Assembly: GCF_008709575.1 (NCBI RefSeq)
Contig: NZ_VYIK01000004.1
Coordinates: 1,640-65,639, forward strand
DNA: 64,000 nt
Origin: Mycobacterium sp.
GTDB taxonomy: Bacteria > Actinomycetota > Actinomycetes > Mycobacteriales > Mycobacteriaceae
Direction: 5' to 3'
In this document: in pieces, positions 3,001 to 9,000 of the stretch
Layout: each line of letters begins with the position of its first letter
Numbering within the stretch: the first letter of the stretch is position 1
Program-made: the position numbers

Positions 3001-6000
3001 ACGCCGCGTGATAACCAAAGGCGACCACGATCGCGCCCGCGACCACGTTCGACAGTGAGGCGCCAAGACCCCATGCGGTGATGATGGCGCCGAGGCTGAC
3101 GTTGTAGCGGCCGGTTCCGTGCGTGAGGTCGGAGACGACCAGCGGAAACAAGGCCCCGAAAATGCCGGCTCCCACGCCGTCGAGGAGTTGCACGCCGACC
3201 AGCCAAAAGGTGTTGTCCGACACGGGGTACAGAAACCCCCGGCAGGTCAGGATCGCGAAGGCTGTCAGGAAGATGGGTTTGCGTCCCCAGATGTCGGCCC
3301 TGGCGCCGGTGACATAGGCTACCGGCACCATCACGGTCTGCCCGGCGACGATGCATATCGCCATCAGCGTGGTCCCGGCCTGTTTGTTCAACAACCCCAA
3401 CTCCTGGCCAACCAAGGGCAACATGGCGGCGTTGGCGAAGTGAAACACCACGATCGCCGCCGCGAAGACCATCAACCTTCGATCCTGCAGGAGCACCGCG
3501 AAACGAGACGGCTGCCGGTGCTGGCCTGCGGATGCCCGATGCAGGCCGCGCGCCACGTCGTGGTCGATCGCGCTGGGCGGGATTCGCAGCGTGGCGATGA
3601 TGCTGAGCGCGGACACCCCGGCTAAGAGCCAAAACACCACCACCGGTCCGAGGAAGTAGGCCAAAGCGCCGGCCACCGCGGCCGACGACGCGTTGCCGGC
3701 ATGGTTGAACGACTCGTTGCGCCCGATACGTCGAGCGAAACACCGGAGGCCGACAACGCCCAGTGTGATCGCCGCCAGTGTGGGAGTGAAAATAGCACAG
3801 GCGATCCCGACAACCGCCTGCAGCAATGAAGTCGTATAGATGTCGGGAAACAGCGGCATTGCCGCGGCCGCGAGAGTGATCGCTGCCGCGCCGGTGATCA
3901 CGAGTGCTCGTTTCGCCGTGGTTCTATCGACCAGTGCACCGATCGGGGTTTGCGCGAGCACGCCCACAGCGGTGAACACCATCAACACGAACCCGATTGA
4001 GGCCTGATCCCAATGATGTTTCAGCAGAAGGTAAATCGACAGGTATGGTCCTAATCCTTCGCGAACGCCGCCCAACGAAAAGTTCAGCAGATCCAGTGCG
4101 TGCGCCGTGCGGCGTGGAAGACCCTCAGTGGGCTGTGACATGGGAAATCACGCCATCACCGGGTACCAGACCCTGTGGTGACCGCATAGGAACTGGTCGG
4201 CTCGTGTGCTGATCCCGATCAAGGCTGCGTTGACCGTCCTTTCCCGGTGAAGTTACAGCGTCGGCGCCTCGCGGCCCTAAGGCCCGAACGGCCCGCCAGG
4301 GCCCGCGAAAAACCCAGGTCCGGTGATCAGGCCGACGAGCAAGGCCGGTGCACCGACGAGCATGCCCAGCAGCACAATGAGCCCCACGATTGCCGCGGTG
4401 GTCAGCAGCCAGGGACTCGCCCCGGTGGAGCCAGGCACACCAGCGGGACCGCTGACTCCGCCACCGCGACCGGCACCAGGCCGGTGCCCGGTTGTGCTAT
4501 GCACGCCGGCCCAATACCCCAGCGCGGCAACCGCGATCAACAGCAACAAAGTCACCATGATCAGTCCTCCCATCGGCAATCGGGACGGTCTCGGCGATAG
4601 CTCCTGAATGACTGGGATGCAACACCTCAGGGTGGTGGGGGTGGGCCCCAGCCCGGTGGTGGTGGTGGTGGTGGGGGTGGGCCCCAGCCCGGTGGTGGTG
4701 GGGGTGGGCCCCAGCCCGGCGGTGGCGCGAGGACTTGCCCGGGCGCCGGCGGCGGAGCCTGCGGATCAGCGTGCGCGACTGCGACCCCGACCAGCGTCAA
4801 CCCGACACCGGTTGCGATCGCCGCGCGGGCCAGTATCTGCATGACCAACATGAGGAATACGTCCTTTGCACGACGGGTTAGGGTCCGTGGGTCGGGCTCG
4901 GCGGCGCGGCGGGCCGGGGCCAACCGGGGGCGGGTGTCACCGGTTGCGGCGCGAGCGCTGGTCCACTCGGAGGCGGCCCCCACGCCCACGGCGGCGGCGG
5001 AGGATGGCACCGCGGCGGTGGTGGCGGCGGTGGTGGCGGCTGAACCCATCCCGGCGGTGGCGCGTTGGACCACACGCCCGGTAGAGCCGGCGCGATACCC
5101 CAGCCGCCCGGCGGCGGAGGGGCGAATAAACGGACCAGGCCGCCGGCAGCGATGACGCCGATCAGCAGCCCGATGGCGCCGGCGCCCACGGTGGCGGCGA
5201 CCGGATGGCGAGCAACGACCGACGGTGCCCGGGCGCCCATGCTCGTTATCGGCTCGACAACCGGGCGTCGAGGTTCACCGCTGGGCGGATCGGAAGCGCT
5301 CCGAACCGATAGGTCGTCGGCCATGATTCCTTCGCGATAGGAGACCTGGGCTATGGCTGCAACGCTAGGAACGGACTGTGAAATCAACCTGAAGACCGGG
5401 CACAGCGGGGCGCTATCTTCAGGTTGGTTTCAGAAACCTGACCGGTCGGCGCCGACAATGAAACCATGACCGATCGGCCGCAGAATCCGCCCCGGGGCCC
5501 GCGCGAGCGGGCAAGGCAGCCCAGCGCTGCGCGGGTTCTCGTGGTCGAGGATTCCCAGACGATCCGTGAGATGGTCAGCGAAGCGTTGGCCAACGCCGGG
5601 TATGTCACCGCGACACGTCCTAGCGGGGCCGGCCTGGAAGATGTCCTCGAGGGATTTCGGCCCGACCTGGTGGTGCTCGATGTCATGATGCCCGGACGTG
5701 ACGGCTTCATGTTGATCGACGTGGTTCGCGACTGGGGCGAGGCCGGGATAGTCTTGCTCACCGCCCGAGACGGGCTGCCCGACCGGTTACGCGGGCTCGA
5801 CAGCGGCGCAGACGACTACGTGGTCAAACCGTTCGAATTGGCTGAGCTGGTCTCCCGCGTCGGGGCGGTGTTGCGCCGCCGCGGTCGGCTCCCGGCGATT
5901 CTGCAGTATGGCGATGTGACCTTGGATCTGGACGCCGGAGTCGCCAGCCGGGCCGGATGCCGACTGGACCTGACTGCCACCGAATTGAGGTTGCTCAGCT

Positions 6001-9000
6001 TTCTGGCCGAGCAGCGCGGCCGAATCGTCAGCACCAGCCAGATTCTGGTCACCGTGTGGGGATACGACGCATACGACGCCAATTTGGTGCATGTCTATGT
6101 CAGCGCGTTGCGCCGCAAACTGGAAGCGCACGGCCCGCGCATCCTGCACACGGTGCGCGGTATCGGCTACCGCCTGCAACCCCTCCGGTCGTGACCACCG
6201 ACCGCGGCGTCGCGCGTCCGACAACTCCTGCACCGTCGCTGCGCCGGCGGGTGACCCTGATGGCGCTGGCCGCGTTGGCCGTGTTGTTGCTGCTGCTCGG
6301 CGTCAGCATCGACACGCTGCTGGGCGTGCAAACCCGCCGCAACGTGCACGACCGACTCATGGCGACCGCATCTCGCGCTGACGCACTCGCCGCCGTCAAC
6401 ACTCCACCCGATCAACTCGTCGCTCAGTTGGGTGGCGGCGGCATCCGGGCTCTGCTCGTCGCCCCGGACGGCAGCACCTTCGGTGATCGCGCCATCCGCG
6501 CGGACGCGGTAACCGGGCCAACCGTTCCCCCACCCCCACCGCCGCCAGTCCCGCCGCCTGCCCCGCCGCCGTGGAACCAAGCATCCCCGGGTTGGTGGCC
6601 GCCTGCGCCGGGCTGGGGGCCGCCGCCGCCCCCGCCGGGCTGGGGGCCGCCGCCGCCGGGCTGGGGGCCGCCACCTCCTCCACCGCCTCCGAAGAGGCCG
6701 CCGCCAGACGCCACCGCGTCGGTGATCGTGCACCCGTTGCGAACCGGCGGGCGGGTGATCCTGGTGGCGGACACCACGGCGACCGCGGCGCTGATCCGGC
6801 GGCTACGGGAAACCATGATTGCCGCCGGGCTGATCACCCTCGCCGCGGCAGGTGTGTTGTTGAGCCTGGTCACCCGCGCAGCGCTGCATCCCCTCGATCG
6901 GCTGACCGCGCTGGCCCGAACCATCACCGGCGGTGACCGCGGTCAACGCCTGCACCCCGACCGCACTGACACCGAACTCGGCCGCGCTGCCGCGGCTTTC
7001 GATGGCATGCTCGATGCTCTGGAAACCTCCGAGCGACGTGCCCAGCACTCCGCCGAGACCGCCCGCCGCGCCGAGGCCACCACCCGGCAATTCCTCGCCG
7101 ACGTCGCCCACGAATTACGCACACCGATCGCCGGTATCCGGGCTGCCGCCGAACAACTGCACACCGCCGCCGCCCAACACGGCGATGACCCGCGGGCGGC
7201 CGGCCAATACCGCCGCGCAGAGTTGTTATTGGCCGAGTCGCGCCGCGCCAGCCGACTCGTCGCCGACATGCTCGACCTGACGCGCATCGACGCCGGCGTG
7301 ACACTCGACGTTGCCGAGACAGACCTGGCCGCGCTTGCCGACGCCGAATGCGAGCGTGCGGCAATGCTGTCCCCGGACCTGACGGTGATCCGCACCGGCG
7401 AACCCGCTATGACTGTCCGCGCCGACCCCAACCGGATCGCCCAAATCCTGTCCAATCTGGTCGACAACGCCCGTCGGCACACTCCCCCAGCCGGGAGAAT
7501 CGTCATCGACGTGGGCCGTACCGACCACGATCAGTCTGCCGATCGCGCCACCGTGACTGTAACCGACTCAGGCCCCGGCATCCCGGAAACCGAGCGGGAA
7601 CGCATCTTTGACCGCCTGGTGCGCCTCGATGCCGCCCGCGACGCGGATCATGGCGGGGCCGGGCTCGGGCTGTCCATCGCGCGGGCGCTGGCTCGAGCCC
7701 ACGACGGCGACCTGGTCTGCCTTCCGCACCGCGACGGCGCCTGCTTCCAGCTCACTCTGCCGTTGTCGACGAAGGCCTGAGCCCGGATATTCAGATCGGG
7801 ACAATTTCGCGCAACAGGTTCTGCCGGATCCGGTAAAGGTTGGGACACATTTTCGGCTGTCTCGCGACACGTCAAGCGCAACAGCGGGTTATGTGCCCGC
7901 GTGGTTAACAATGCGGGACATGACTGAATTGCGGAAGCTCGATGGTGGCGCATGAGATCTCACGCCAGACGTTTTTGCGTGCCGCCGGAGCATTAGCCGC
8001 CGGAGCGGTTTTCGGATCAGGTCGGGCCGGCGCCGATCCGGGCAGCTCCGGTTGGGAAGGCCTTTCCGGTGCGATCGGCGGGCAAGTGCTACGGCCCGAC
8101 GACGGTCCCCAATTTGCCAGCGCGAAACAGGTTTTCAACACCAACTACAACGGATCGACGCCGGCGGCGGTCGTCACACCGACGTCGCTGGCGGACGTGC
8201 AAAAGGCGATGGCCTTCGCGGCTGCTCACAACCTGAAGGTAGCGCCGCGCGGCGGCGGGCATTCCTATGTAGGGGCGTCCACGGCAGACGGCACCATGGT
8301 GCTTGATCTGCGGCAGCTGCCGGGAGGAATCAGTTACCACGCCCCCACCGGTCAGGTGACGGTGGCGCCCGCGACCGGGTTGTATGCGATCCACGATGCG
8401 CTGGCCGCGGCCGGGCGGGGTGTGCCGACAGGTACCTGCCCCTCGGTGGGCGTGGCGGGGCATGCGTTGGGAGGTGGGCTGGGCGCCGATTCACGGCACG
8501 CCGGTCTGCTCTGTGATCAATTGACGTCGGCGTCGGTGGTGCTGCCCGGTGGCCAGGCGGTCACCGCCTCGGCCACCAGCAACCCCGACCTGTTCTGGGG
8601 ATTGCGGGGTGGTGGCGGCGGCAACTTCGGGGTGACCACCGCGCTGACTTTTGCGACGTTTCCGGTCGGGGACGTCGACGTCGTCAATCTGAATTTTCCG
8701 CCGCAGTCGTTCGCTGCGGTCTTGCTCGGTTGGCAAAATTGGCTGCGCACCGCCGACCGCAGCAGCTGGGCACTCGCGGACGCCACCGTTGACGCGATGG
8801 GTACCCATTGCCGGATTCTGGCGACGTGCCCGGTCGGGTCGGGCGGCAACGCCCAGCGCGCCATCGTGTCGGCCGTGGGGATGGCGCCCACCGGGACCGA
8901 GAACTACACGTTCAACCGGATGGAACTGGTGAAGTATCTGGCCGTCGGTAATCTGAACCCGGCACCTTTGGGATACGTCGGCGGGTCCGATGTCCTCCCT

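Follow-up and report, generated by a model that had tools for sequence, protein, structure and literature searches.

The DNA analyzed here is a stretch of 64,000 nucleotides of Mycobacterium sp. assembly GCF_008709575.1 (contig NZ_VYIK01000004.1, positions 1,640 to 65,639 of the forward strand; here referred to as the window), which contains a two-component regulatory system and, divergent from it, three small genes (A, B, and C) with proline-rich products. The first-pass annotation of this DNA had described a response regulator, a sensor kinase, and a divergent operon of three genes, and all five are present as open reading frames (ORFs; Table 1). The presence of PPE and ESX genes and the naming of the homologs place the host genome in Mycobacterium. 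The response regulator has PhoP, PrrA, and MtrA of Mycobacterium tuberculosis as its nearest solved relatives and is 72-82% identical to the regulators of orthologous loci. Its TGA stop codon overlaps with the GTG start codon of the kinase gene as GTGA, and in the kinase, His307 in AHELRTPI is invariant in 24 homologs. By their Pfam domains and the two transmembrane (TM) helices of the kinase model, regulator and kinase belong to the OmpR/PhoB-type two-component systems.

Genes A, B, and C are read on the minus strand from a 141-bp intergenic region that they have in common with the regulator gene, and none of the three matched any Pfam or NCBIfam model. They correspond to what had been described earlier as a membrane protein with a Pro-Gly-Trp motif (A), a secreted peptide (B), and a small Gly/Pro-rich membrane protein (C). 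The product of gene A is predicted to consist of ~55 cytoplasmic residues, a TM helix starting RHPVAATVGAG, and an extracytoplasmic Pro/Trp-rich tail with the units PPPPGGWG, PPPGWV, PPPPPWAWGPPP, and PAPGWP. The mature peptide encoded by gene B has 46 aa, made up of Pro/Gly/Trp, with three PPGWG units. The starts of A and C were shifted inward from the longest ORFs, since close homologs begin MADD… and M(V/S/L)T(L/V)LLL…, respectively. Good ribosome-binding sites lie ahead of both chosen start codons, i.e., ATG 5324 for A and ATG 4558 for C, the latter preceded by GGGAGGA. ORFs matching gene C at 65-73% identity occupy the corresponding place in the related metagenome loci L140, L142, and L144.

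Table 1. Features of the two-component cassette in the window
Feature	Position	Strand	Basis or remark
Gene C, 93 aa, two hydrophobic helices, Gly/Pro-rich linker and tail (...GPGFFAGPGGPFGP)	4277-4558	-	ORF
Gene B, 74-aa precursor, Sec-type signal peptide VAVAHA/DP	4627-4851	-	ORF read
Gene A, 148-aa single-pass membrane protein	4878-5324	-	ORF; no Pfam/NCBIfam match
Bidirectional control region, two inverted copies of the direct repeat CTTCAG-N5-TTTCA(G/C), 22 bp apart	5379-5433	both	one toward A, one toward the regulator gene
OmpR/PhoB-family response regulator, 242 aa	5466-6194	+	Pfam Response_reg PF00072 (E=4.6e-24), Trans_reg_C PF00486 (E=1.2e-22)
Sensor histidine kinase, 529 aa: TM1, small alpha/beta periplasmic domain, TM2, HAMP, HisKA, HATPase_c	6191-7780	+	Pfam
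Proline-rich insert of the kinase with PPGWG units, residues ~112-172 (...PPPPPPPVPPPAPPPWNQASPGWWPPAPGWGPPPPPPGWGPPPPGWGPPPPPPPPKRPPP)	6524-6706	+	between TM1 and TM2

The tract that had been noted between TM1 and TM2 of the kinase reads letter by letter as given. In an AlphaFold2 model of the kinase based on 24 homologs, the periplasmic core consists of a long helix extending TM1, a short helix, three strands, and then two strands that lead into TM2, with a predicted local distance difference test (pLDDT) score of 84-94. The insert, which is modeled without secondary structure (pLDDT 47-64), sits between beta-strand 3 (residues 109-111) and beta-strand 4 (residues 176-182). Its flanks, …YGD..I.PD…GP.VPPP and PPDATATVVVHPL…, are kept in all 59 of the 59 homologs read. 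The tract between them ranges from ~10 to ~70 residues, and its motif depends on the lineage, e.g., PPPPGWG, PPPPWG, PPPWG, PPPRWG, PPGWP, PPPYG, PPGYPPPF, PPPFAPP, PMPMPMP, or PEPGG. Differences occur even within one species, as Mycobacterium colombiense has kinases of 465 aa and of 492-494 aa with loops of ~15 to ~42 residues. In a six-frame scan of the 3.9-Mb assembly, three or more PPGWG-type units were present in the kinase ORF and the B ORF only, the remaining 19 matches having one unit apiece. The units form tandem arrays, with a period of 27 in the kinase and 27/36 in B, where matches amount to 95-97%. A literature search on a proline-rich insert or loop in a mycobacterial sensor kinase found no description of one. 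Contigs of several other genomes end in or next to the kinase proline tract (G127:C86, G099:C67, G051:C46, G079:C133, G134:C173, G135:C112, and G082:C5), and many database kinases of this family are labeled 'partial', several of them from M. avium, M. ulcerans, and M. persicum. Contig breaks at the tract may explain many of these partial entries; as draft assemblies often break inside the kinase gene, the gene is under-annotated.

The paired boxes that had been reported in the shared promoter were located in the control region and are conserved across species. The strict pattern CTTCAGGTTG[A/G]TTTCA occurs exactly twice in the window, at 5379-5394 (minus strand) and 5417-5432 (plus strand), where none is expected, and of three genome-wide matches to the looser pattern CTTCAG-N5-YTYCA, two are at the cassette locus. 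When the upstream sequences of the regulator gene were aligned for ~30 loci, CTTCAG-N5-[T/C]TCAG was found to be conserved ~20 nt ahead of a TAACAAT-type -10 element, and the inverted partner GAA…AACCTGAAGAA is conserved further upstream. Each box is a direct repeat of a hexamer with 11-bp spacing, the usual geometry for dimers of the OmpR/PhoB family. A scan with the sigma-70 consensus, which is uninformative for mycobacteria, returned no promoter. The sole other strict box match in the genome lies on contig C521 (~900-935), where three CTGAAG hexamers at 11-12 bp spacing stand just upstream of a PE gene; this site could be a target of the cassette regulator or of the PPE-linked paralog described below. 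In an M. avium complex locus (L151:3100-3190), in genome G003, and in Mycobacterium sp. 852014, the space between A and the regulator gene has, between the boxes, an additional ~40-bp palindrome, GAGCGACAA … TTGTCGCTC, which the window lacks.

The arrangement of the boxes in other genomes bears on the earlier claim that the regulator controls the divergent operon. In Mycobacterium sp. 050134 (locus L042), gene A lies downstream of the kinase in convergent orientation, yet it is preceded by the full inverted pair and TTCCTAGCGT. The same pair with TTCCTAGCGT is found upstream of the hybrid kinase of isolate E2699 (described below); the convergent-type loci with the pair ahead of A or of the hybrid kinase are L042 and L149. 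As the pair precedes A even far from the regulator promoter, the boxes belong to the promoter of A itself, which speaks for direct control of A, along with B and C downstream of it, by the regulator. Judged by these conserved boxes, regulation of A and B by the cassette regulator appears well supported, and control of the small genes as a group is likely. The claim is thus strengthened as far as box conservation reaches, including in loci where A lies away from the regulator.

Kinase searches returned hundreds of homologs in Mycobacterium at 58-84% identity, with the M. avium complex, M. intracellulare, M. colombiense, M. asiaticum, M. stomatepiae, M. nebraskense, M. simulans, and M. riyadhense among the named carriers; a few are annotated as 'putative TcrY'. 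A match to the cassette kinase (E<1e-90) is present in 34 of the 121 genomes sampled from the genus, and the cassette is conserved in slow-growing Mycobacterium. About 35 loci were fetched, 31 of which belong to the proline-loop clade and could be evaluated for neighbors. Among the matches listed in a search of genome contigs for related loci, most were unrelated kinases and six Mycobacterium loci were of use. At least one A-type gene, often together with a B-type gene, accompanies the kinase in ~29 of these 31, so that the co-occurrence of insert-bearing kinases and small genes, proposed earlier as a check, is borne out. A-type genes encode a single TM helix after RRHP… or RRHST… with a proline-rich tail behind it, and in many species a B-type gene stands beside the kinase, its product having a MKIKQLIAGSLLAGALG… signal peptide followed by a Pro/Gly tail that closes with PPPGF. 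Both are always on the strand opposite to the kinase, either upstream and divergent or downstream and convergent.

The surroundings of the cassette vary. MFS (major facilitator superfamily) transporters and an FAD/BBE oxidase flank it in the window, the context in genome G010 differs from that of the window, and in M. asiaticum and the M. avium complex it lies inside an Rv1486c-NfeD-Band7-DoxX … VTT-mutAB block. Since the kinase has A and B with it in at least three different contexts, the cassette, as far as gene order tells, moves as a unit. The MFS transporter genes of the window (1348-2667 and 2864-4141) are in tandem, 35% identical to each other, and adjoin gene C. At least one MFS gene is kept at the matching position in the related loci L140, L142, L143, and L144, and the transporter gene may therefore be part of the cassette in the window's clade. 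In G010, a 327-aa secreted protein is encoded 2.5 kb downstream of the kinase and convergent with it (L031:2139-3119); with its long Pro/Thr-rich region and PPPPPPRGWGWNDGPPPGHPPPHWYGPPPPGGWNGPPPPGGWNRPW as a C-terminal tract, it would bring the Pro/Gly/Trp proteins near the cassette to three in that species.

A paralogous clade of kinases has a loop of only ~10 residues (…APPPLEP…) and is represented by loci L134-L136 and by contig C333 of the window's own genome. Kinases of the two clades are 54-63% and regulators 73-82% identical, and the paralogs have the same periplasmic flanks and one conserved box. They differ from the cassette in having PPE genes upstream and no proline-rich neighbors. 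On C333 (~16800-18950), the regulator is 73% identical to that of the cassette, the kinase is 54% identical over its C-terminal two-thirds, and a PPE gene lies upstream; the pairing with PPE recurs in L136.

Across species, the insert of the kinase and the tails of its neighbors vary together. Each kinase insert was compared with the tails of its own neighbors and with those of other genomes (non-PPP k-mers, permutation). The 3-mer cosine of loop and tail is 0.40 for cognate pairs versus 0.31 for non-cognate pairs (p=1e-4). The cognate excess holds when each of 15 clades is represented by a single member (p=8e-4), and with A tails only and the window's clade left out (p=0.004). The 'same repeat' that had drawn attention to this locus is, in the light of these comparisons, the clade-specific extreme of a general pattern in which the sensor insert and the target tails evolve in concert.

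The tracts have also served as breakpoints of a natural inversion. In Mycobacterium sp. 050134, taken as reference, the gene order is regulator, kinase, and then convergent B and A. The order in Mycobacterium sp. E787 is regulator, an N-terminal kinase part fused to a short proline tail, B, and a convergent intact kinase of 433 aa, the first 63 residues of which are an A-type anchor joined via PPPPPGYPPPPPGAPPMPP to …DATATELVHPL…. Relative to 050134, the block made up of the C-terminal kinase part, B, and the A tail is inverted in place, with both flanks in the same orientation; one breakpoint lies in the kinase insert and one in the A tail. The inversion, found in isolates E787 and E2699, swaps the N-terminal halves of the kinase and A, splits the sensor domain between strands 3 and 4, and puts the catalytic half behind the box-bearing A promoter. 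Misassembly was rejected as the cause of the E787 arrangement: no long inverted repeat is left at its junctions, the inverted block is internally colinear, and E2699 is arranged alike with substitutions of its own. The latter carries the arrangement on a 174-kb contig, with a somewhat different proline junction and several scattered substitutions in the rest of the protein. These features of the two sequences argue that the arrangement is real and inherited.

Two further loci were set aside. In M. asiaticum 1245139.5, which was not accepted as a second clean inversion, one junction only lies in the tracts; the other, at 66 nt from the end of a contig, leads into unrelated sequence, and the hybrid protein stands as a singleton. 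Genome G014 was not used, as its contigs end with inverted duplicates of the N-terminal kinase part that are 91% alike (L033:6909-7386 and L036:8260-8669). A 407-bp stretch is 100% common to both contigs, and G014 is probably a strain mixture or an assembly artifact. With regard to a programmed invertible switch of the fim or shufflon type, no recombinase domain was found in the seven genes scanned with Pfam, i.e., the cassette and one flanking gene on each side, and the E787 junctions retain no long inverted repeat.

The explanation that is held to be moderately probable is that of a self-contained, autoregulated two-component cassette of slow-growing Mycobacterium, a paralog or variant of the TcrXY type (compared below), which would work in the following steps, namely, I) the phosphorylated OmpR-type regulator would bind the two inverted copies of CTTCAG-N5-TTTCAG in the bidirectional promoter; II) it would thereby drive the A-B(-C) operon as well as the regulator-kinase operon to which it belongs; III) A-B(-C) would supply a membrane-anchored, a secreted, and a small membrane protein, with the proline parts of A and B predicted to lie outside the cytoplasmic membrane; IV) the kinase would sense via its small periplasmic alpha/beta domain, in which the putatively disordered, fast-evolving proline insert stands between strands 3 and 4; and V) in the periplasm, the induced tails would encounter the loop of the sensor, or an envelope ligand that the loop also meets, and would thereby exert feedback on signaling. 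The tracts of the kinase, A, and B would evolve in concert, slippage expanding and contracting the tract of each gene and occasional exchange taking place between opposed tracts, one such exchange having been fixed in the E787/E2699 lineage as the inversion. The co-variation in the absence of DNA identity supports the idea of mimicry put forward in the first-pass annotation, in that loop and tails may be in functional contact or have a ligand in common. Contact or a shared ligand may also act together with slippage and exchange.

Several observations weigh against this proposal. The PPPPGWG unit had been taken as a repeat shared by the sensor and its targets, which holds for the kinase and B of the window's clade only; it is not a feature of the family, which uses other units elsewhere. 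B lacks Trp in other clades though the kinase loop there has Trp. Gene C was not found in loci beyond the window's own clade. The effect size of the co-variation of loop and tail is moderate. M. colombiense with the loop of ~15 residues still has gene A, so a long loop is not required for A to persist. Lastly, in loci L140 and L144 the kinase and B have 23-24 nt and rare GGT glycine codons in common, which indicates that the similarity in the window's clade is partly owed to exchange or to a repeat unit of common origin. Such a contribution means that similarity alone is no evidence of binding.

This last point leads to the strongest of the other explanations, by which the shared motif is a by-product of slippage and of ectopic exchange between opposed CCN-rich tracts; A and B may then still be targets of the regulator, and the tracts would be tolerant spacers in proteins that make no contact. 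This is a serious possibility, albeit one that is doubted on the present evidence. All of the tracts are tandem arrays with copy numbers that shift between close relatives (B has 3, 4, or 8 units in the window's clade), loop length differs within M. colombiense, and the inversion, with both of its breakpoints in tracts, proves that tracts recombine. The L140/L144 sharing fits the same picture. Homogenization within genes is visible in the window itself, where the units read GGC-TGG-GGG in 3/3 cases in the kinase and GGC-TGG-GGC in 3/3 cases in B. As these codons are uniform in each gene and different between genes, they also indicate that there was no recent copying between the kinase and B, and the proline codons agree, with CCG accounting for 62% in the loop versus 29% in B. 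In most genomes, outside of the window's clade, the longest DNA strings that loop and neighbors have in common measure 9-16 nt, the same as in non-cognate comparisons (mean 12.7, 95th percentile 17), on which ground recent gene conversion was rejected as the sole cause of motif sharing for most clades. The co-variation at the protein level persists nevertheless, and throughout the genus the kinase has retained the tract, prone as such arrays are to deletion.

A second explanation makes A and B sacrificial or protective buffers of envelope stress, similar to TarA/TarB and induced by acid or oxidative stress; the loop would share their chemistry of oxidizable Trp, Met, His, or Tyr set in polyproline by sensing the same insult, and no contact would be needed. 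PMC10883919 reports for M. tuberculosis that TcrXY induces a pair of small proline-rich proteins by which redox stress at acidic pH is limited, and annotators have given the name TcrY to some members of the kinase family. Furthermore, where loops and tails depart from proline, they mostly have Trp, Met, His, Phe, Tyr, and Gly, varying by lineage. Against this, the TarA/TarB-type genes, which the same genome has separately, are no homologs of A and B, and several lineages have loops without an oxidizable residue (e.g., the PEPGG repeats in L125). It is considered unlikely that A and B function in this way.

It is quite improbable, if worth stating, that the opposed proline tracts constitute a built-in recombination substrate that rewires the sensor. 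Through an inversion that recombines the loop of the kinase with the A tail, the catalytic half would gain the anchor of A and the regulator-controlled A promoter, and the N-terminal half would stay co-transcribed with the regulator. Should the inversion prove reversible or recurrent in populations, it would amount to a recombinase-independent switch between an intact sensor and a split or feedback-driven one, and it would explain the concerted evolution of the tracts. Lastly, a reading of the small ORFs and of the motif match as compositional artifacts of a GC-rich genome is hardly tenable: GC-rich DNA does give spurious frames (71 ORFs in 7.5 kb) and A, B, and C lack a family model, but the position, strand, signal peptide or anchor, and length of A and B are kept in >25 species, ribosome-binding sites stand at the starts, multi-copy PPGWG is confined genome-wide to the kinase and B ORFs, and C is well conserved in its three relatives.

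The cassette occurs in clinically and environmentally important non-tuberculous mycobacteria, such as the M. avium complex, M. intracellulare, M. colombiense, and M. asiaticum, among others. It has gone unrecognized as a family, its annotations reading 'sensor histidine kinase' or, by similarity, 'TcrY'. With the sensor, regulator, boxes, and targets within 3.5 kb, and a motif that is nearly unique in the genome, it offers a compact test system. It opens to testing the question that is posed by TcrXY and TarAB, i.e., what small proline-rich envelope proteins do and how they are wired to a sensor, and the co-varying tracts and the split-sensor inversion provide natural variants for asking whether a disordered polyproline loop is a signaling input.

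Among known systems, feedback of the CpxAR-CpxP kind, in which a periplasmic protein induced by the system modulates its own sensor, resembles the cassette in that the targets diverge from the regulator promoter region and their products have predicted export signals or an anchor that would direct them toward the compartment of the sensor domain. The difference lies in the proteins, as A, B, and C have neither the CpxP/Spy (LTXXQ) fold nor any other Pfam/NCBIfam domain, and their tails are low-complexity polyproline.

The closer relative is TcrXY (Rv3765c/Rv3764c) of M. tuberculosis. In PMC10883919, this OmpR-type system is described as autoregulated and acid-responsive, with TcrX binding a repeat pair in its own promoter and binding and directly activating Rv3706c/Rv3705A, i.e., TarA/TarB, small proline-rich proteins that limit redox stress at acidic pH. 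The architecture, which had not been recognized earlier from characterized mycobacterial systems, does have a relative among them in TcrXY. On the cassette side, the likeness comprises an OmpR-family system of Mycobacterium, a promoter repeat pair, and predicted small proline-rich envelope proteins. The differences are that the small genes of the cassette adjoin the system and share its boxes, whereas TarA/TarB lie ~60 genes off with no common motif found, and that the cassette has a hypervariable sensor insert co-varying with its targets, of which the passages of PMC10883919 consulted make no mention for TcrXY; nor was a description of the TcrY sensor domain found in those passages. For M. 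avium subsp. paratuberculosis, tcrXY has been published as MAP_RS01315/MAP_RS01320. The neighborhood of TcrXY includes lpqH (Rv3763), and the cassette has no lpqH beside it; the two Myco_19_kDa matches in the window's own genome are both located elsewhere. By their numbering, the two MAP genes are presumably far from the mutAB block that houses the cassette in the M. avium complex.

The window's own genome also encodes, between the ergothioneine cluster and asd/ask (contig C545:6525-7880), two membrane-anchored His- and Pro/Gly-rich small proteins with the anchor …AAWV.IVAGIVF… and a His-rich segment. One of them reads …AAWVVIVAGIVFVIATIFFTG…HHHWHHHH…(PGMGPGG)n, and the published Rv3706c primers translate to FFTGYIL, which resembles IFFTGAYVTG of a C545 protein. 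Judging from these sequences, the C545 proteins are likely the counterparts of M. tuberculosis TarA/TarB. Neither A nor B is detectably similar to these genes or to anything elsewhere in the genome, and they represent a different family, the TarA/TarB type being distinguished by its ergothioneine-asd/ask location, its other anchor, and its His-rich character. As judged by synteny and by the family of A and B, both of which differ, the cassette resembles TcrXY in outline but is not the same system.

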